Origin: an uncultured Bacilli bacterium
GTDB lineage: Bacteria > Bacillota_I > Bacilli_A > RF39 > UBA660
Length of the DNA: 64,000 nucleotides
Direction of reading: 5' to 3'
Assembly: GCA_934085825.1 (NCBI GenBank)
Contig: CAKOHR010000001.1
Span: 64,379-128,378 of the forward strand
The notes beneath the pieces were generated by a model. The model saw only the letters and a list, made by a program, of their open reading frames with translations, was not told the origin of the DNA and made no database searches. The position numbers and the translations under genes were made by a program. Below, one piece after another: positions 3,268 through 57,441 of this stretch; the stretch's first letter is position 1, and each line of letters opens with the position of its first letter.

Positions 3268-3343
3268 TGGTGTCCCCTCAGGGATTCGAACCCTGGACCC
3301 ATTGATTAAGAGTCAATTGCTCTACCAACTGAGCTAAGGAGAC
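3268..3343 (-). tRNA. tRNA-Lys (anticodon CTT)
   Basis: The reverse complement folds as a cloverleaf: GTCTCCT acceptor, GCTCAGTTGGTAGAGC D-arm, anticodon stem ATTGA/TCAAT with loop CTCTTAA, GGTTCGAATCC T-arm, encoded CCA. Confidence 0.85.
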
Positions 3344-11533: not shown

Positions 11534-11557
11534 AAAAAGCCATGATGGCCTTTAATA
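11534..11557 (-). terminator. weak terminator after cotJC
   Basis: gcca tga tggc hairpin with a flanking T-run on the minus strand. Confidence 0.35.
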
Positions 11558-12118
11558 TTATTTATATCCTTTTTCTTTGTAGTAGTTGTATAGTTCTTCA
11601 AATCGGTTGAAATGAATAATTTCTCTTTGACGTAAAAATAGAAGTGGTTCAATAACTTTGGGGTCTGTTGCTAAATCAATTAAATGTTCATAAGCAACTC
11701 TAGCTTTTTGTTCTGCAGCCATGTCTTCAACTAAATCAGCAAGGGGATTACCAGTTACTGCAAATGTTGATGCATCAAAAGCTACACCATCAGCACTCAT
11801 TGGGAATACACCTTTACCATGTTCAGTGTAGAAACTTTCAAGCCCAGCATCCTTAATTTCTTCAATTGTTGCGTTTTCAATAAGTTGTGAAACAATTGTG
11901 GCAACCATTTCTAAATGTCCAAGTTCTTCTGTGGCTATATCGTTTAAAAGGGCTCTTCCTTTTTCATCTGGCATTGTAAATTTTTGATGAAAATATCTAA
12001 GTGCTGCACCTAGTTCACCAGCATAACCTCCGACTTGGGTTATGATAAGTTTAGCCATTTTTAAATCTTTTTTTGTTACATTAATTGGATAAGATAAATG
12101 TTTTACATATTTAAACAT
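11558..12118 (-). CDS. cotJC: spore coat protein CotJC (manganese catalase family)
   Basis: YPINV..LAKLIITQVGGYAGELGAALRYFHQKFTMP and EELGHLEMV match the CotJC/Mn-catalase ferritin-like motifs. Adjacent to a CotJB homolog. Confidence 0.85.
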   Translation of the reverse strand: MFKYVKHLSYPINVTKKDLKMAKLIITQVGGYAGELGAALRYFHQKFTMPDEKGRALLNDIATEELGHLEMVATIVSQLIENATIEEIKDAGLESFYTEHGKGVFPMSADGVAFDASTFAVTGNPLADLVEDMAAEQKARVAYEHLIDLATDPKVIEPLLFLRQREIIHFNRFEELYNYYKEKGYK

Positions 12119-12686: not shown

Positions 12687-14648
12687 ATGGACAGAATACG
12701 TGAAAAAATAAAGAAAATCCTTAATAAGGACGTAACAAGTCTTTTAAATAAACATAAAATTCTACTGGTAAGCATAGCTATAGTAGTTATTTTGTCGTGC
12801 GTTGGATTAATAGTTTCGTACGCATTTTATCAAGTTGTAGATACGACCCCAGTGATCTTGAGTACGACACCACAGATAGCAGATTTAGAAGTCAGGATTA
12901 TGGCAGAAGAAAGAGATACTAGTGGTAATGGGCTTAATAGTTATGCTATTTATCCATATATACCAAAAGCTGGATATAAATATGATGCTGGTATGAGTTA
13001 TTGTACAAATGGAAGTACTATTAATTACGATGCAAGTACTTATGATGCCAGTATAAATGCTACCGGGCATGATGTTTGTTATTTATATTTTAAATCAACA
13101 GCAAGCTTAGATATAACTTTAGAAGTTTATGCGGAAAATGTAGATAGTGATGGGGTTGGTAACGGAGAATATACAAAATTAGAAACTACATCTTTGCCAT
13201 CAATTGGATATGAACTTAATAGTAGTAAATCTTATTGTGTGTATGCAAATGATGAAAGTACTCATGTAACTGATACTACAGTTTCTTATAATTCTGATAA
13301 ACAAAAATTTACAGTAAACGCTAGAAAAAAAGGTGCAATTTGTAGGGCTTATATGGATGCAATGGATGTAGATATTGCTCTTAAAATATTTGTTCAAGCT
13401 AAGAAGGGCTCATCAACATATTATGAAGTTGATAAAATACCTGTAACTAGTTTCTATGCACTGAATACTGACAAGTCGGCGTGTACAGGTACATCGACAA
13501 TGTCAATTAAAAATCAAAAAGTTGTGATAGCAGCAACAAATAGAACAAATTGTGTTGCTTATTTAGATGTTTCTTCAGGCCCCTTTATAGAAAGCATGAG
13601 AGTTACAAATTCAGGAACAAGTGCAACAATTACACTTGGAAATAGTAATTTAGGAACAACGCCATCAACATATTATTATTCAAATGATGGTGGAAAAAAC
13701 TATGCAACAAGTACAAGTAACACATATACATTTACAAGTCAAGCAAATCCAAGTTATGCATATAAAGCATATAGTGCAGATGCATCAGGAAATACATCAA
13801 GAGTATTCGAAACATCAACTTATGGATATTATGGATTAGTAGATTATTCAAACCAAATACAGACTAAGACAATTACAGAATCTGGTTATTACAAATTAGA
13901 AACTTGGGGAGCTCAAGGCGGTGGAGATACTAAGTATGTTGGTGGATATGGTGGATATTCGGTTGGATATATTTATTTAAATCCAAATTCAACATTATAT
14001 CTTGCTATAGGTGGAGCTGGTGGTTATTGTACTGGTTCAAGTTGTACTTCAGTAGGAGGGTATAATGGCGGAGGAAACTGTAAAGCATATACAGATTCAA
14101 CATCAACATGTGGAGCTGGTGGTGGAGCTACTCATATAGCGACAATTCCAGGAGTGCTGGCATCATTAGAAAATAATAAAGACAGTATTTTAATAGTTTC
14201 TGGCGCAGGTGGCGGAGGAAATTACTGTAATGACTGGAATTATGCTTCTGGTGGCATGGGCGGCGGATTTACTGGTGGATCTGCAATAGATTTAGGGGCT
14301 CCAGATTTTTCTGCTAATGGTGGTTTAGATACCAAAGGCGGTACACAAGATGGAGGTTGGAAGTTTGGTTTAGGTCGTGGAAGTGAAGGAGCTAACTTTG
14401 TTGGAGGCGGCGGTGGTTATTATGGCGGTAATTCAACATTTATAAATGGCTCTGGTGGTGGTTCTGGTTATATTGGCAATCCATTATTAACAAATAAATC
14501 GATGTATTGTTATAATTGTACAACTAGTAATTTAGAGACAACAAAGACAATTTCTACGACATGCCATAGTTCAAATGCTACTGAAAATTGTGCAAAAGAG
14601 GGTAATGGTTATGCTATTATTACCTATATTGGGAGTGATTTAAGTTAA
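12687..14648 (+). CDS. membrane-anchored glycine-rich surface/secreted protein, tandem paralog 1 of 2
   Basis: 653 aa. A cytoplasmic N-terminus, then a TM anchor ending in an SYAFYQV motif. Next comes a Cys-containing N-domain. The C-terminal half is a Gly-rich region (WGAQGGG, GGYGGY, GGGATHI, IVSGAGGGG, GGGGGYYGG, SGGGSGYIGNPLL), ending in the conserved tail CHSSNATENCAKEGNGYAIITYIG. Confidence 0.8.
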   Translation: MDRIREKIKKILNKDVTSLLNKHKILLVSIAIVVILSCVGLIVSYAFYQVVDTTPVILSTTPQIADLEVRIMAEERDTSGNGLNSYAIYPYIPKAGYKYDAGMSYCTNGSTINYDASTYDASINATGHDVCYLYFKSTASLDITLEVYAENVDSDGVGNGEYTKLETTSLPSIGYELNSSKSYCVYANDESTHVTDTTVSYNSDKQKFTVNARKKGAICRAYMDAMDVDIALKIFVQAKKGSSTYYEVDKIPVTSFYALNTDKSACTGTSTMSIKNQKVVIAATNRTNCVAYLDVSSGPFIESMRVTNSGTSATITLGNSNLGTTPSTYYYSNDGGKNYATSTSNTYTFTSQANPSYAYKAYSADASGNTSRVFETSTYGYYGLVDYSNQIQTKTITESGYYKLETWGAQGGGDTKYVGGYGGYSVGYIYLNPNSTLYLAIGGAGGYCTGSSCTSVGGYNGGGNCKAYTDSTSTCGAGGGATHIATIPGVLASLENNKDSILIVSGAGGGGNYCNDWNYASGGMGGGFTGGSAIDLGAPDFSANGGLDTKGGTQDGGWKFGLGRGSEGANFVGGGGGYYGGNSTFINGSGGGSGYIGNPLLTNKSMYCYNCTTSNLETTKTISTTCHSSNATENCAKEGNGYAIITYIGSDLS

Positions 14649-14779: not shown

Positions 14780-16726
14780 ATGGACAGAATACGTGAAAAA
14801 ATAAAGAAAATCCTTAATAAGGACGTAACAAGTCTTTTAAATAAACATAAAATTCTACTGGTAAGCATAGCTATAGTAGTTATTTTGTCGTGCGTTGGAT
14901 TAATAGTTTCGTACGCATTTTATCAAGTTGTAGATACGACCCCAGTGATCTTGAGTACGACACCACAGATAGCAGATTTAGAAGTCAGGATTATGGCAGA
15001 AGAAAGAGATACTAGTGGTAATGGGCTTAATAGTTATGCTATTTATCCATATATACCAAAAGCTGGATATAAATATGATGCTGGTATGAGTTATTGTACA
15101 AATGGAAGTACTATTAATTACGATGCAAGTACTTATGATGCCAGTATAAATGCTACCGGGCATGATGTTTGTTATTTATATTTTAAATCAACAGCAAGCT
15201 TAGATATAACTTTAGAAGTTTATGCGGAAAATGTAGATAGTGATGGGGTTGGTAACGGAGAATATACAAAATTAGAAACTACATCTTTGCCATCAATTGG
15301 ATATGAACTTAATAGTAGTAAATCTTATTGTGTGTATGCAAATGATGAAAGTACTCATGTAACTGATACTACAGTTTCTTATAATTCTGATAAACAAAAA
15401 TTTACAGTAAACGCTAGAAAAAAAGGTGCAATTTGTAGGGCTTATATGGATGCAATGGATGTAGATATTGCTCTTAAAATATTTGTTCAAGCTAAGAAGG
15501 GCTCATCAACATATTATGAAGTTGATAAAATACCTGTAACTAGTTTCTATGCACTGAATACTGACAAGTCGGCGTGTACAGGTACATCGACAATGTCAAT
15601 TAAAAATCAAAAAGTTGTGATAGCAGCAACAAATAGAACAAATTGTGTTGCTTATTTAGATGTTTCTTCAGGCCCCTTTATAGAAAGCATGAGAGTTACA
15701 AATTCAGGAACAAGTTCAACAATAACACTGGGAAATAGTAATTTAGGAACAACACCATCAACATATTATTATTCAAATGATGGTGGAAAAAACTATGTAA
15801 CAAGTACAAGTAACACATATACATTTACAAGTCAAGTAAATCCAAGTTACGCATATAAAGCATATAGCGCAGATGCATCAGGAAATACATCAAGAGTATT
15901 TGAAACATCAACATATGGATACTATGGATTAGTAGATTATTCAAATCAAATACAAACAAAAACAATTACTGAACCTGGATATTATAAATTAGAAACTTGG
16001 GGAGCTCAAGGTGGAGGATATGGTGAGTATATAGGTGGATATGGAGCATATGCAATAGGATATATCAGACTTGATGCTGGTCCAGTGTATATTAATGTTG
16101 GTGGAGCTGGTAAGAGTGGTGTACAAAGTTCAGAAGGAATTGTTACTTCTGGAGGGTACAATGGCGGTGGAGCCAACACATCAAACAGTTATGGTATTGG
16201 AGGTACTGGTGGTGGAGCAACTCATATATCATTACGTTCTGGGTTATTGCAAACATTAAGTGATTATTTAAATGAGTTGTTAATAGTCTCAGCCGGAGGT
16301 GGCGGAGGTTCACAAGAAATAGGCTATATAGGTTATTGTTATGGTGGATCTGGCGGCGGTATAACAGGAACAGTGGGCTCGTTAAATCCTAACAGAGGTG
16401 ATGGTGGTCCCGGACTTGCAAGTGCACCTACACAAAGCAGTGGTTATGCATTTGGAGCTGGTCAACCAGGCGTTGGTTGGCAAGGCGCAGGTGGTGGCGG
16501 TTATTATGGTGGCATAGCAGGATGCGGTGGATCTGGTGGTTCATCCTACATTGGCAATCCTCTTTTAGTTAATAAATCAATGTATTGTTATAATTGTACA
16601 ACCAGTAGTGCTGAAGCCACTAAAACTGTTTCAACAACATGTCATAGCTCAAATGCTACTGAAAATTGTGCAAAAGAAGGTAATGGTTATGCTATTATTA
16701 CCTATATTGGCGAAAGTTTGGATTAG
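14780..16726 (+). CDS. membrane-anchored glycine-rich surface/secreted protein, tandem paralog 2 of 2
   Basis: 648 aa. The first ~310 aa are essentially identical to paralog 1, and divergence grows after that. The Gly-rich half is strongly diverged, but the last ~50 aa are conserved. Confidence 0.8.
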   Translation: MDRIREKIKKILNKDVTSLLNKHKILLVSIAIVVILSCVGLIVSYAFYQVVDTTPVILSTTPQIADLEVRIMAEERDTSGNGLNSYAIYPYIPKAGYKYDAGMSYCTNGSTINYDASTYDASINATGHDVCYLYFKSTASLDITLEVYAENVDSDGVGNGEYTKLETTSLPSIGYELNSSKSYCVYANDESTHVTDTTVSYNSDKQKFTVNARKKGAICRAYMDAMDVDIALKIFVQAKKGSSTYYEVDKIPVTSFYALNTDKSACTGTSTMSIKNQKVVIAATNRTNCVAYLDVSSGPFIESMRVTNSGTSSTITLGNSNLGTTPSTYYYSNDGGKNYVTSTSNTYTFTSQVNPSYAYKAYSADASGNTSRVFETSTYGYYGLVDYSNQIQTKTITEPGYYKLETWGAQGGGYGEYIGGYGAYAIGYIRLDAGPVYINVGGAGKSGVQSSEGIVTSGGYNGGGANTSNSYGIGGTGGGATHISLRSGLLQTLSDYLNELLIVSAGGGGGSQEIGYIGYCYGGSGGGITGTVGSLNPNRGDGGPGLASAPTQSSGYAFGAGQPGVGWQGAGGGGYYGGIAGCGGSGGSSYIGNPLLVNKSMYCYNCTTSSAEATKTVSTTCHSSNATENCAKEGNGYAIITYIGESLD

Positions 16727-17007: not shown

Positions 17008-17520
17008 ATGTTATTACTTTGCTTAAAGATATTTTTTGCTAGAATTATTGATGTAACTTTAGGTACAGTGAGAACTGTACTAGTTGTAAGAGGCCGAAGA
17101 TTTACTCCGGCCTTTATTGCATTTTTTGAAGTACTTATTTGGTTTGTAATCGCAAGAGAAGCATTGACTACAGATGTAACATCTATTTTAATACCAATTT
17201 GTTATGCTGCTGGTTATGCAACTGGAACTTATATTGGCGGTTTTATTTCTAATAATTTTGTTGATGGATTAATTGGGGTTCAAGTAACTACTAAAACAGG
17301 TAAGTTACAAAAAATGCTTAATGATATTAGAAAAGAAGGATTTGGTGTTTCTGTAATTGAACTTAAAAATCCTCAGGATAATGAAGATAAAAGTATGCTT
17401 TTAATTCAATTAAACAAGTCAAAGTTAAAGGTTTTAACACACATTGTTAGAAGCCATGATCCAGATGCATTCGTGGTTATAAACGAAACTAAATATGCAC
17501 AAAACGGAGTTATTAAGTAA
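17008..17520 (+). CDS. UPF0316/DUF2179 family membrane protein
   Basis: The N-terminus (IIDVTLGTVRTVLVVRGRRFTPAFIAFFEVLIWFV) is typical of UPF0316 proteins of Firmicutes, followed by a C-terminal soluble domain. Confidence 0.7.
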   Translation: MLLLCLKIFFARIIDVTLGTVRTVLVVRGRRFTPAFIAFFEVLIWFVIAREALTTDVTSILIPICYAAGYATGTYIGGFISNNFVDGLIGVQVTTKTGKLQKMLNDIRKEGFGVSVIELKNPQDNEDKSMLLIQLNKSKLKVLTHIVRSHDPDAFVVINETKYAQNGVIK

Positions 17521-17639
17521 ATAAAAAAATGCTCATTTTTTTCTTGTATACTAGGAAAGTCATCCAAAATTTGCAAAATAAAATCTTGATATATGGCCGA
17601 ACATATGATATAATTTAATTGTCCAAGGGGGATTGATTA

Positions 17640-18782
17640 ATGAATACTTATAGAGCATATAAATTAAGAATTTATCCTACTGATTTACAAAGAGAATTAA
17701 TTGAAAAAACTTTTGGGTGTACTAGATATATTTATAATAATTTTCTTGCAGAAAGAAAAAATAAATATGAAGAAAGTAAAATAAAAGTGCATGTTTATGA
17801 ACAGCTAAAAGAACTAACAGATTTAAAAAGGGAAAAAGAATGGTTAAGAGAAATAGATTCATGTGCTTTGCAAGCATCAGTATATAATTTAGATGATGCA
17901 TTTCAAGGATTTTTTCATGGTAAGGGCTATCCAAAATTTATGGCAAAAGGTGTACATGAAAGTTTTAGAACTAATAATACATTAAGTACTTATAAAAATA
18001 AAAAGTATGAAACTATCAGAGTAGATTTTAATAAAAGAATAATAACTTTACCAAAATTAAAAGAAGTAAAGTTTCGAGGATATAGAACAACTAAGGAAAT
18101 CGTAGGAAAAATAAAATCAGCAACAATAAGCAAGGATGCTAACAAATATTTTGTAAGCATCTTAGTTGAAGTGCCATTTTTTAAATATTCAATAAATCCA
18201 ACATCAATCGTGGGATTAGATTTAGGAATTAAAGATTTTATAGTAACATCAAATGGAGAAAAATTAAAAAATGAAGTAAAGATCAATGAGAAGAGATTAA
18301 AAGGATTACAAAGATGGTTAGCTAGATGCAAACCAGGAAGTAAAAATAGATATAAAGTAAAATTAAAAATACAAAGATTATATTTAAAAATTAGGAATGC
18401 CAGAAAATATATGATATATAAACTTGCAAATAATATCTTAAAGGAAAATGACATTGTAGCTGTTGAAACACTAGCTGTTAAAAGCATGTATCAAGTCCAT
18501 AAAATAGCTAAACACTTAAAAAACATACCTATCAGTGAATTTATACGAGTCTTAAAATACAAAGCAGATTGGTTAGGTAAAAAAGTTATTAGTATAAATA
18601 AATATTATCCAAGTAGTCAATGTTGTAATAGATGTGATTATAAAAATGAAGAAGTAAAGGATTTAAGTGTAAGAAAATGGATATGTCCAAGATGTGGATT
18701 TGAACATGACAGAGATATAAATGCAAGTGAAAATATAATGTTTGAAGGATTGAAAATATATATGAAAGAGTGTATAATATAA
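17640..18782 (+). CDS. tnpB: TnpB (OrfB) RNA-guided endonuclease / IS605-family transposase accessory protein
   Basis: 380 aa. N-terminus MNTYRAYKLRIYPT...Q.ELIEKTFGCTRYIYN, a RuvC-like core (GLDLGIKDF), and a C-terminal zinc finger CCNRC...CPRCG. Confidence 0.85.
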   Translation: MNTYRAYKLRIYPTDLQRELIEKTFGCTRYIYNNFLAERKNKYEESKIKVHVYEQLKELTDLKREKEWLREIDSCALQASVYNLDDAFQGFFHGKGYPKFMAKGVHESFRTNNTLSTYKNKKYETIRVDFNKRIITLPKLKEVKFRGYRTTKEIVGKIKSATISKDANKYFVSILVEVPFFKYSINPTSIVGLDLGIKDFIVTSNGEKLKNEVKINEKRLKGLQRWLARCKPGSKNRYKVKLKIQRLYLKIRNARKYMIYKLANNILKENDIVAVETLAVKSMYQVHKIAKHLKNIPISEFIRVLKYKADWLGKKVISINKYYPSSQCCNRCDYKNEEVKDLSVRKWICPRCGFEHDRDINASENIMFEGLKIYMKECII

Positions 18783-18804
18783 ATAAGAACAAAATGAATA
18801 TAAG

Positions 18805-18916
18805 TAGGGTGGCGACCATCCGAAGTTGGTCTGCTTAAGAAACCTAAGGTTTCTGTGAAACAGAAAAGTGTTACCGTGAGGTAACACAGATACTTGAATT
18901 TCGTTAGAAATTTAAG
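18805..18916 (+). ncRNA. omega-RNA (reRNA) scaffold, 3' part, derived from the IS right end (probably begins inside the tnpB 3' end)
   Basis: The block lies immediately after the tnpB stop and ends at the element boundary. It contains the perfect hairpin gtgttacc gtga ggtaacac. A second stem shows compensatory substitutions relative to the copy at 34425-34536. Confidence 0.55.
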
Positions 18917-18970
18917 TTATGTTCTTTATAGTTGGAAGATATAGTATAATTTAAAGTAGAATGAAATGGG

Positions 18971-33516: not shown

Positions 33517-33611
33517 TTTATATACTAAGATAGTTATCCTAATTCTACAAAAACAAATCTTGATATATGGCCGAACATATGGTATAATTCGATTATCATG
33601 GAGGCATTATA

Positions 33612-34449
33612 ATGACTATATATAAAGCATATAAATTTAGAATTTATCCAAATAGAGAGTAAAAGGTAATGATAGATAAAACTTTGGATGTACGAGGTTT
33701 GTTTTCAATAAATTCTTAGTAGAAAGAAAAAAATATGAAGAAAACAAAATTAAATTAAGTGCTTATGATGAGTTAAAAGAACTAATTGATTTTAAAAAAA
33801 GTGGCTTAAAGAAGTAGATTCATGTGATCTTCAAAAATGTGTATTTAACTTAGATGATGCATTTAAGAATTTTTTTTCGTGAAAATTGATATCCAAAATA
33901 TAGAAGCAAAGGAGAACATGAAAGTTATACAACAAATAACACATTAAATGAATATAAAAATGTTAAATATGAAAGTATAAGAATAGATTTAAAAAAATAA
34001 AGTAATAACATTACCAAGACTAAAAAAAGTAAAGTTTCGAGATATAGAAAACCAAAGTAGTAATAGGAAAAATAAAGTCAGCAACAATTAGTAAAGATGC
34101 TAGCAAGTATTTTGTAAGCATCCTTGTTGAAGAGCCGTTTACTAAACCAACTATAAATCCAACATCAATCTTGGGATTAGATTTAGGCATCAAAGATTTT
34201 ATAATTACTTCATATGGAGAAAAACTAAAAAATGAGGTAAAAGTAAATGAATATTATCCAAGTAGCGAGGTTTGCAATAGATGTGAATATAAAAATGAAG
34301 AAGTAAATGATTTAAGTGTAAGAAAATGGATATGTCCAAGATGTGGAATGGATCATGATAGAGATATAAATGTAAGTGAAAATATAATGTATAATATAAA
34401 TAGGAACGAAATAGCTAAAAATATTAGGGTGGCGACTATCCGAAGTTGA
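33612..34449 (+). pseudogene. tnpB pseudogene (multiple frameshifts, internal deletion)
   Basis: Segments homologous to TnpB lie in three frames. The zinc-finger fragment CNRCEY...CPRCG is retained in ORF 34171..34449. Confidence 0.6.
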
Positions 34450-34536
34450 TCTGCTTGAGAAACTTTGGTTTTCAGCGAAACAGAAAAGTGTTACCGTGAG
34501 GTAACACTGCTACTTGAATTTTGTTAGAAATTTAAG
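34425..34536 (+). ncRNA. omega-RNA-like right-end scaffold of the decayed element
   Basis: About 85% identical to 18805-18916. The gtgttaccgtgaggtaacac hairpin is retained, and there are compensatory changes in the gaaacc/ggtttc stem. Confidence 0.45.
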
Positions 34537-34596
34537 CTTTGTTGTGGTTGCTTTCAAAATAAAATTAGTTTAAAATAAATATTGTGAGAGGTAATT

Positions 34597-51880: not shown

Positions 51881-51957
51881 GGCGAGATAGCTCAGCTGGC
51901 TAGAGCATCCGGTTCATACCCGGCAGGTCGAGAGTTCGAATCTCCCTCTCGCTACCA
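51881..51957 (+). tRNA. tRNA-Met (anticodon CAT; could alternatively be the lysidine-modified tRNA-Ile2)
   Basis: GGCGAGATAGCTCAGCTGGCTAGAGC ... anticodon loop TTCATAC ... GGTCGAGAGTTCGAATCTCCC, with encoded CCA. Confidence 0.85.
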
Positions 51958-57099: not shown

Positions 57100-57248
57100 A
57101 ATCCTTTCTTTAATGTATGTGATATATTTTTTATTACAATGTTGATTTTGCTTTTTGTAATATATCTGACGATTATACAAACCGTGATGCATCCGCCGAA
57201 TGTTCGATAAACATCATCCTCGTTAACCTCAGGGGTCTGGCGCTAACA
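57100..57248 (-). ncRNA. glmS ribozyme (GlcN6P-dependent self-cleaving riboswitch) in the glmS leader
   Basis: The reverse complement reads ...TAGCGCCAGACCCCTGAGG...ACGAGGATGATGTTTATCGAACATTCGGCGGATGC..., matching the conserved glmS ribozyme core (AGCGCCAGA at the cleavage site; ACGAGGA..CGAA..TTCGGCGGATGC). Confidence 0.75.
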
Positions 57249-57441
57249 AATAATTTTACCTCCATCAATTATTTTGTTTTCATTTTCATTATAATATATG
57301 CAAAATAAAAAGTCAAAAAGTTTTATATTAATGTTTACAGCTAATTATAGATGGTAATTAATTAAAAAGAAATATTTTGAAGTTTTAGCAGGCTCTAGAC
57401 ACGTAACTTCATTTATTGTATAATTGATGTGGTGACGCAAA

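Follow-up and report, generated by a model that had tools for sequence, protein, structure and literature searches.

General features of the locus

The window analysed here, a stretch of 64,000 nt from an uncultured Bacilli bacterium (contig CAKOHR010000001.1 of assembly GCA_934085825.1, positions 64,379 to 128,378), contains at positions 17547-18924 a mobile element of the IS200/IS605 type, which holds a single open reading frame (ORF), tnpB, and is flanked by a DUF2179 gene on one side and, on the other, by a gene for a 312-aa protein that precedes scpA/scpB. The TnpB protein is a homologue of ISDra2 TnpB, and the region that extends from the tnpB stop codon to the right end has the features of an omega-RNA scaffold. 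The features of the element and its immediate surroundings, together with a second copy of the same family found in the window, are as follows.

17542-17546, plus strand: TCTTG, the transposon-adjacent motif (TAM), located in the left flank where the T-tract of the upstream terminator ends
17547-18924, plus strand: whole element, 1378 bp, without target-site duplication
17547-17639, plus strand: left end, 93 nt, composed of a terminal motif, an A/T-rich stretch, the putative tnpB promoter and a ribosome-binding site
17547-17565, plus strand: terminal motif TATACTAGGAAAGTCATCC, nearly invariant
17586-17614, plus strand: putative sigma-70-type tnpB promoter, TTGATA-17 nt-TATAAT with TG upstream of the -10 box, matching 11 of 12 consensus positions and conserved in 24 copies
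17625-17631, plus strand: ribosome-binding site AAGGGGG
17640-18782, plus strand: tnpB, 380 aa, with RuvC residues D194, E276 and D359 and zinc-finger residues C329, C332, C349 and C352
18750-18778, plus strand: promoter-like site TTGAAA-17 nt-TATAAT in the last tnpB codons, matching 11 of 12 consensus positions
18783-18924, plus strand: right end with the predicted omega-RNA scaffold, 142 nt from the stop codon to the end of the element
From 18783, plus strand: A-rich leader of 24 nt, directly after the stop codon
18807-18917, plus strand: structured core, 111 nt
18807-18821, plus strand: SL-A, GGGUGG-CGA-CCAUCC
18822-18824, plus strand: GAA linker
18830-18833 with 18861-18864, plus strand: stem 2, UCUG/CAGA
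18834-18839, plus strand: allele variant CUUAAG at the junction of stem 2 and stem 3a (family consensus UGGAG)
18838-18844 with 18848-18854, plus strand: stem 3a, AGAAACC/GGUUUCU
18868-18887, plus strand: perfect GNRA hairpin GTGTTACC-GTGA-GGTAACAC, between stem 2 and stem 4
18892-18917, plus strand: stem 4, ACUUGAAUUUC-GUUA-GAAAUUUAAGU
Up to 18924, plus strand: tail UUAUGUUC
18920-18924, plus strand: transposon-encoded end motif TGTTC, invariant in about 28 copies
18925-18944, plus strand: predicted guide, the 16-20 nt of flank that begin with the first base after the conserved end, TTTATAGTTGGAAGAT(ATAG)
33521-34544, plus strand: second, decayed copy of the family

Element boundaries and target site

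Loci of the same family were gathered from genomes and metagenomes (individual loci are given below by their L numbers) and provided approximately 25 independent left flanks and 28 independent right flanks. The similarity between independent copies breaks off exactly at 17547 and 18924. On the right side the conserved sequence ...GAAATTTAAG TTNTGTTC^ (the sign ^ marks a junction) comes to an abrupt stop in all of the approximately 28 copies, and in the window it reads ...AAG TTATGTTC^ at 18924; on the left side the element starts with TATACTAGG..., and the motif TATACTAGGAAAGTCATCC is preceded by a T-run in all left ends compared.

These boundaries were also obtained by comparison with an empty site. 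Searches with the exact upstream and downstream flanking proteins returned occupied loci only, as did those for another variant of the locus, P0093, and the empty site (L124/L125) was located through a 90%-identical homologue of the flanking protein. It displays the same synteny, lacks tnpB, and reads ...TTTTTTCTTG^TTTATACCTAGAAATTATAGTATAAT... (also written TTTTTTCTTG^TTTATACC...), where the occupied window reads ...TTTTTTTCTTG^TATACTAGG...TTATGTTC^TTTATAGTTGGAAGATATAGTATAAT.... The TAM and the guide side together reconstitute the empty site, since TCTTG^TTTATACC... in L124 corresponds to TCTTG^element^TTTATAGT... in the window. One T at the junction could be assigned to either side; in other copies the base after GTTC is not conserved, which settled the matter. 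Two additional empty sites were found, one in L004 (TTTTG^TGGATTT), which is the counterpart of the insertion in L059, and one in the window itself (11556-11569, TATTA^TTTATATCC), which is the counterpart of the insertion in L058/L012. The approximately 25 independent left flanks end in TTTTA, TTTTG or TCTTG, giving the family a TAM consensus TTTTR. Four close copies share T7-CTTG, and the possibility that the T-run and CTTG belong to the element was ruled out by the empty site L124, which contains TTTTTTCTTG. Host genes of the window and of the empty-site lineage differ by a synonymous divergence (dS) of 0.5-1.1, and the insertion is therefore younger than that split.

A preliminary description of this stretch, based on the sequence alone, had delimited the element as 17574-18916, so that 27 nt on the left and 8 nt on the right were missed. 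The guide proposed at that time, ttatgttctttatagt, contains 8 nt of the scaffold, the real right flank beginning with TTTATAGTTGG at 18925, and the position left of approximately 17574 at which a TAM was to be looked for has no meaning. The same description had considered that the structured block might simply be part of a longer terminal inverted repeat; terminal inverted repeats are absent, the left and right ends being unrelated to each other and the left end unstructured. The absence of terminal inverted repeats and of target duplication, together with insertion 3' of a short motif, are traits of the IS200/IS605 family.

The insertion split the -35 box of the promoter of the downstream 312-aa gene, changing TTGTTT-17-TATAAT (empty site, L124:3066-3110) into TTCTTT-17-TATAAT (window, 18917-18960), with the GTTC end of the element partly mimicking the displaced CTTG. 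Expression of this gene may since then rely on transcription that reads through from the element. The predicted guide overlaps the spacer of this promoter, and no close match to it beyond chance was found elsewhere in the 64-kb window.

The TnpB protein and its conservation

The tnpB product matches the Pfam families HTH_OrfB_IS605, OrfB_IS605 and Cas12f1-like_TNB (PF12323, PF01385 and PF07282) and the NCBIfam model guided_TnpB with 294.6 bits (cutoff 100). Residues 5-371 align to residues 5-373 of ISDra2 TnpB (PDB 8exa/8h1j; E = 1.9e-67), with D191/E278/D361 of ISDra2 aligned with D194/E276/D359 and all four zinc cysteines matched. The protein thus possesses the traits of the ISDra2-like TnpB or OMEGA group: an N-terminal region with a helix-turn-helix (HTH)/WED-REC organization, a split RuvC D-E-D triad, and a CxxC...CxxC zinc finger. 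The ORF, the Pfam matches and the ISDra2 alignment bear out the intact 380-aa TnpB with RuvC core and zinc finger that the preliminary description had announced.

Three other assignments were considered and dropped. The intact triad and zinc finger do not agree with a nuclease-dead regulator of the TldR type. An IStron was rejected because the left end is only 93 nt long and no Rfam intron match was obtained at the gathering threshold or at E <= 10. The IS607 family was rejected as the IS200_TnpB model scores higher (376.9 bits, versus 142.8 bits for IS607_TnpB), and the transposase of relatives, where present, is a Y1 TnpA.

When compared with 17 other copies at a dS of 0.28-0.47, tnpB displayed ratios of nonsynonymous to synonymous divergence (dN/dS) of 0.09-0.29. 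For the same pairs the divergence of the 124-nt scaffold was 0.016-0.095 and that of the left end 0.08-0.25, the right end evolving 4-15 times more slowly than synonymous sites. Judged by these ratios tnpB is under purifying selection, which makes an active nuclease locus plausible; a variant RNA junction and the missing TnpA and left-end hairpin call for some reservation (see sections below). The family is confined to metagenome-assembled genomes (MAGs) of uncultured human-gut Bacilli, Tenericutes and Erysipelotrichaceae, and the nearest annotated relatives, on Clostridium plasmids and phages, encode TnpB proteins that are at most 44% identical.

Structure of the right end

The right end (18783-18924) folds as RNA with -44.1 kcal/mol (z = -5.4), a value that none of 200 shuffled sequences equalled. 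A covariance model, R1, was built from the close family only. In relatives with a TnpB of only 36-45% identity it gave matches immediately after tnpB (E between 4.5e-9 and about 1e-3), and it located the right end of a Deinococcus ISDra2-like element at the correct position (E = 0.0015). On the R1 alignment, which is model-fitted and hence biased towards structure, two-sided changes were counted in all 36 pairs, none of 500 shuffles reached the observed covariation score, and 94.8% of the cells were paired, versus 34-48% with slid partners.

The replacement of whole stems is also visible in the raw sequences. Among relatives, GAAACC/GGUUUC becomes GGGAC/GUCCC, CCUGU/ACAGG becomes CUCGU/GCGAG or CCUAU/GUAGG, and the GNRA hairpin changes from GUGUUACC-GUGA-GGUAACAC to GAUGCAAC-AGAA-GUUGCAUC in L056 and to UAGUA-GUGA-UACUA in L013, with the GNRA and U-rich tetraloops kept while the stems are fully replaced. 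The GNRA hairpin was also found in L071, L100, L103 and L108, and the right ends of distant relatives finish in GAGGUUCA[A/C]. Two pairings were tried and abandoned: GACCA/UGGUC as an alternative to GGGUGG/CCAUCC, since distant relatives covary for the latter, and GAACA after the stop codon as a pseudoknot partner, which is missing in L056 and L013.

An intact TnpB homologous to that of ISDra2, the covariation, and the part-by-part correspondence with the ISDra2 RNA support the view that the right end is the omega-RNA scaffold of a TnpB-only IS200/IS605-type element, its existence as a cellular RNA being predicted; low divergence and folding energy are in line with this. The omega-RNA architecture proposed by the preliminary description therefore stands, as do its perfect hairpin gtgttacc-gtga-ggtaacac (18868-18887) and its stem gaaacc/ggtttc (18839-18844/18848-18853, enclosed in stem 3a). 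Its structured block of approximately 110 nt does not directly follow the stop codon, the 24-nt leader coming first, and the structured core of 111 nt ends at 18917.

In most copies the promoter-like site at 18750-18778 consists of TTGAAA or TTAAAA combined with TATAAT or TTTAAT. It is a candidate promoter that could provide the omega-RNA with a separate transcript, with coding constraint and AT-richness as confounding factors. On the minus strand, the GNRA hairpin (18868-18897), then followed by TTTTCTGTTT, scores as an intrinsic terminator, which could halt antisense transcription entering the element.

Left end and absence of a transposase

No Y1 TnpA was detected by tblastn (two queries, E <= 10) in the 64 kb of the window or beside any copy of the close family, in agreement with the IS1341-like arrangement that had been proposed for the locus. 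In contrast, tnpA is located directly upstream of tnpB in 14 metagenome or MAG loci of distant relatives (e.g. L013, L100 and L113), and it also adjoins tnpB in the ISDra2-like Deinococcus plasmid locus L131. These TnpA-bearing relatives carry a strong left-end hairpin that resembles their own stem 4 and is located in the place equivalent to 17547-17585 of the window. A right-end subterminal hairpin is present in the window element as stem 4, located 8 nt from the end (DNA fold z = -4.9).

Twenty-four left ends were aligned. A 5-bp stem in the promoter spacer was considered as left-end hairpin and discarded, showing one compensatory change and several wobbles and being broken in four copies. 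The promoter-proximal half of the left end (ATTTGCAAAA...CTTGATA...ACATATGATATAAT) is, by eye, like the left end of L113, and the family seems to have spread after losing the section of the left end that bears the hairpin.

Two side observations concern left ends of relatives. L056, which encodes a TnpB of 69% identity, shares GAAAGTCATC, the core of the left terminal motif. An element of a Bacteroidales MAG (L013:2441-2460) and one on a plasmid of Deinococcus sp. QL22 (L131) have exactly the same left-end hairpin, CTCGTGACTTCAGTCATGAG, a notable identity given that the L013 TnpB is approximately 45% identical to the window TnpB and the latter approximately 40% identical to ISDra2 TnpB, the distance between the L013 and Deinococcus proteins being gauged through the window TnpB instead of by direct comparison.

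Comparison with known systems

For ISDra2 we used the published architecture (PMC10097598), the RNA sequence in its supplement, a machine-read text from which letters had apparently been dropped, and an 82%-identical Deinococcus element (L130) in place of the exact ISDra2 DNA. The predicted RNA displays the same order of parts as the ISDra2 RNA: a 5' hairpin, a linker, the closing stem 2, a GG junction, stem 3a, stem 4, and a GUUC-containing tail before the guide. Stem 2 is a 5-bp closing stem in both (CUCAU/GUGAG in ISDra2, UCUGU/ACAGA in the window), and both have a U-rich tetraloop in stem 4 at positions -20 to -17, the loop being GUUA in the window and not UUUA. The end motif TGTTC is the counterpart of the GGUUCA pseudoknot tail of ISDra2, where the pseudoknot uses scaffold positions -6 to -2 (PMC10097598). 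As in ISDra2 the TAM is T-rich and located 5' of the left end, but it reads TCTTG (TTTTR in the family) instead of TTGAT.

Several differences from ISDra2 were found. The window TnpB is approximately 40% identical, comprises 380 instead of 408 aa, and has no C-terminal tail; the element has neither tnpA nor a left-end hairpin; and its scaffold is located wholly downstream of the stop codon. The RNA has the GNRA hairpin in addition, located between stems 2 and 4, its stem 3a is short and replaces the long stem 3a/3b, and the loop of its 5' hairpin comprises 3 nt, so that the GAA linker may have taken over as pseudoknot partner.

With the IS1341-type elements and ISGst of Geobacillus stearothermophilus (PMC10055086, PMC9956272) the window element has in common that tnpB stands alone between conserved ends, that the family comprises many copies and protein-less mini derivatives (here L016), that TAM and end motifs are clade-specific, and that mobilisation is presumed to occur in trans. 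In approximately 75% of cases a tnpB gene is not accompanied by a tnpA in its vicinity. Hairpins at both ends are reported for "most" IS1341 elements (PMC9956272), unlike the left end described here. The full IS605-type relatives (L013 from the Bacteroidales MAG, L100, L105, L108 and L113) possess the same right-end RNA architecture including the GNRA hairpin, and the promoter-proximal part of their left end is similar by eye; they differ by a Y1 TnpA upstream of tnpB, a strong left hairpin, tails ending in GAGGUUCA[A/C], and a TnpB identity of 36-45%.

Proposed mechanism and alternative explanations

Our preferred interpretation, to which we assign a probability of roughly 0.85, is that 17547-18924 is a non-autonomous tnpB-only (IS1341-type) IS200/IS605 element of the ISDra2 TnpB clade, with an omega-RNA encoded by its right end and maintained by homing and retention. 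The parts, their order and conservation, the ends and the TAM come from the comparisons described above, and the mechanism is modelled on published work (PMC8612924, PMC10097598, PMC10055086). The tnpB gene would be transcribed from TTGATA-17-TATAAT (17586-17614), whose function as a promoter is deduced from its sequence. A transcript containing the scaffold and flank would be produced either as the 3' part of the tnpB mRNA or from the promoter-like site at 18750-18778. TnpB would bind the scaffold, and the 16-20 nt of flank from 18925 would, by analogy with ISDra2, serve as guide. The complex would then cut copies of the locus that lack the element (TCTTG followed by TTTATAGTTGG...), and, as in the homing/retention model (Meers et al., PMC10055086), repair by recombination with an occupied sister copy would restore the element. 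Where the element is in place the locus would be spared because ...ATGTTC replaces the TAM before the guide match. New insertions would need a Y1 TnpA acting in trans.

A number of observations weigh against this interpretation. Subterminal hairpins at both ends are the only defining IS200/IS605 feature, among those tested, that the element lacks: no stable hairpin was found in the left end (DNA fold -3.4 kcal/mol, z = +1.85), and without a hairpin of the type used by TnpA its present-day mobility is therefore doubtful. An Rfam search of the right end returned no family at the gathering threshold or at E <= 10, and the bias of the covariation counts has been mentioned above. The scaffold ends in GUUC^, 2 nt earlier than the ISDra2-type GUUCAA^, and covariation did not single out a pseudoknot partner for the GUUC tail, as the tail and the candidate partners, the 5' hairpin loop and the GAA linker, do not vary. 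Finally, the allele in the window carries CUUAAG at a conserved junction, which could weaken the RNA. The corresponding allele of another strain at the same locus (L017) has UGGAG, three of the 20 differences per 1378 bp falling within 4 nt; the GG of this junction is conserved in ISDra2 and most distant relatives, while L067 (UAA) and L108 (UGA), which are apparently intact, also deviate.

Part of the evidence would suit a domesticated or host-retained TnpB and omega-RNA, which no longer transposes and is kept for a host function or for its own retention at a fixed locus. The copy at 17547-18924 is present in every public contig that encodes the exact flanking proteins, variant P0093 occupies a single locus in 18 contigs, purifying selection persists without TnpA, the left-end hairpin has been lost, and the guide lies over the promoter region of the next gene. 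We nevertheless consider this explanation unlikely: the triad and zinc finger are intact, unlike those of known nuclease-dead TnpB-derived regulators; the precise ends at approximately 25-28 insertion sites imply that the family transposed with its present left end; the occupied locus has no TAM by the guide match, so that the complex should not bind its own neighbourhood; and retention by homing already accounts for purifying selection. That the locus is an inert relic, whose ORF and right end look intact only because the insertion is young and whose protein and RNA are neither made nor used, appears very improbable in view of the dN/dS values and the low right-end divergence, and of the fact that the two best promoter-like sites of the region precede the tnpB start codon and the scaffold, respectively, in spite of the missing TnpA, the decayed sister copy in the same window, the deletion derivatives L010, L016, L015 and L059, and the variant RNA junction.

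It is hardly credible that the right-end block acts at the DNA level or as a terminator only, i.e. as a TnpA-binding subterminal hairpin plus terminators without any guide RNA. TnpA needs one hairpin, whereas five helices over approximately 110 nt, including a long-range closing stem, covary here; the GNRA and U-rich tetraloops are conserved despite a complete change of the stems, and the layout matches an RNA solved in complex with TnpB. The position of stem 4, which at 8 nt from the end is usual for an IS200/IS605 right-end hairpin, its DNA z score of -4.9, and the terminator-like appearance of the GNRA hairpin and T-run on the minus strand would fit such a role, but the roles are not exclusive, and stem 4 does both in known elements.

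Other copies and insertion next to terminators

The second copy in the window, which the preliminary description had also recognized, contains stops, frameshifts and a deletion of approximately 305 bp in tnpB. It keeps the right-end structure (120 bits with R1 at 34421-34544), its end motif is mutated to TGTTG, and it shares the junction variant CUGCUU[A/G]AG with the element at 17547-18924. Deletion derivatives in relatives include a protein-less 389-bp mini element composed of left end and right end (L016:2909-3289, PATE-like), and a deletion between two 11-bp repeats ATCCAAAATTT (L010:2990-3999). L012:2495-5512 is a partial duplication with a 380-nt fragment of a Mn-catalase gene that is enclosed by two right ends. 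In L020 the left flank is that of the element at 17547-18924, but the right flank, and hence the guide, is another one; these mixed flanks suggest recombination between copies.

A hairpin of -6 kcal/mol or lower was found within the 45 nt before the insertion in 84% of 25 left flanks (approximately 23 independent loci). For TTTTR sites in the window the proportion was 13% overall and 20% between genes (p about 1e-9). Examples of such terminator-adjacent insertions are window 17505-17546, L002:2865-2908 and L062:1062-1106, and tnpB is always co-directional with the upstream terminator. This excess at the ends of terminator T-tracts, beyond that expected from the TAM, may reflect selection against insertions elsewhere, a mechanistic preference for terminator ends being another possible source. 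A non-canonical mobilisation, in which the host terminator hairpin by the TAM would act as structural partner at the left end or target, or in which a trans-acting enzyme would recognize TATACTAGGAAAGTCATCC, is distinctly unlikely; if true, it would represent an IS200/IS605 targeting mode that resembles the way in which class C group II introns home to terminators.

In prokaryotes, IS200/IS605 elements that carry tnpB alone and have an omega-RNA right end count among the commonest genes. The kind of element described here is textbook, and how it works has been established with ISDra2 and the Geobacillus elements. In practical terms the analysis provides exact ends, a TAM, the start of the guide and a model of the RNA for a family of compact, 380-aa TnpB proteins of uncultured human-gut Bacilli. 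With its T-rich, Cas12-like TAM and a scaffold located wholly outside the ORF, this family could easily be included in a screen for miniature editors. Two points may be of interest to specialists: the left-end hairpin is missing although the family has clearly transposed, and insertions show a strong bias for the ends of terminator T-tracts.

Other features of the window

Two adjacent paralogous genes (12687-14648 and 14780-16726) encode proteins of approximately 650 aa with a glycine-rich ALK_LTK_GRD domain (Pfam PF12810). This pair adjoins cotJB and Mn-catalase (cotJC-like) genes, which point to a spore-forming Firmicute with 27% G+C. Rfam matches at gathering thresholds in the window comprise a glmS ribozyme (57111-57255, minus strand, 78 bits), a match to the Clostridioides difficile small RNA family n00280 (RF03531; 25738-25836, plus strand, 73.8 bits) located inside a gene, and two tRNAs (3271-3343, minus strand, and 51881-51954, plus strand).

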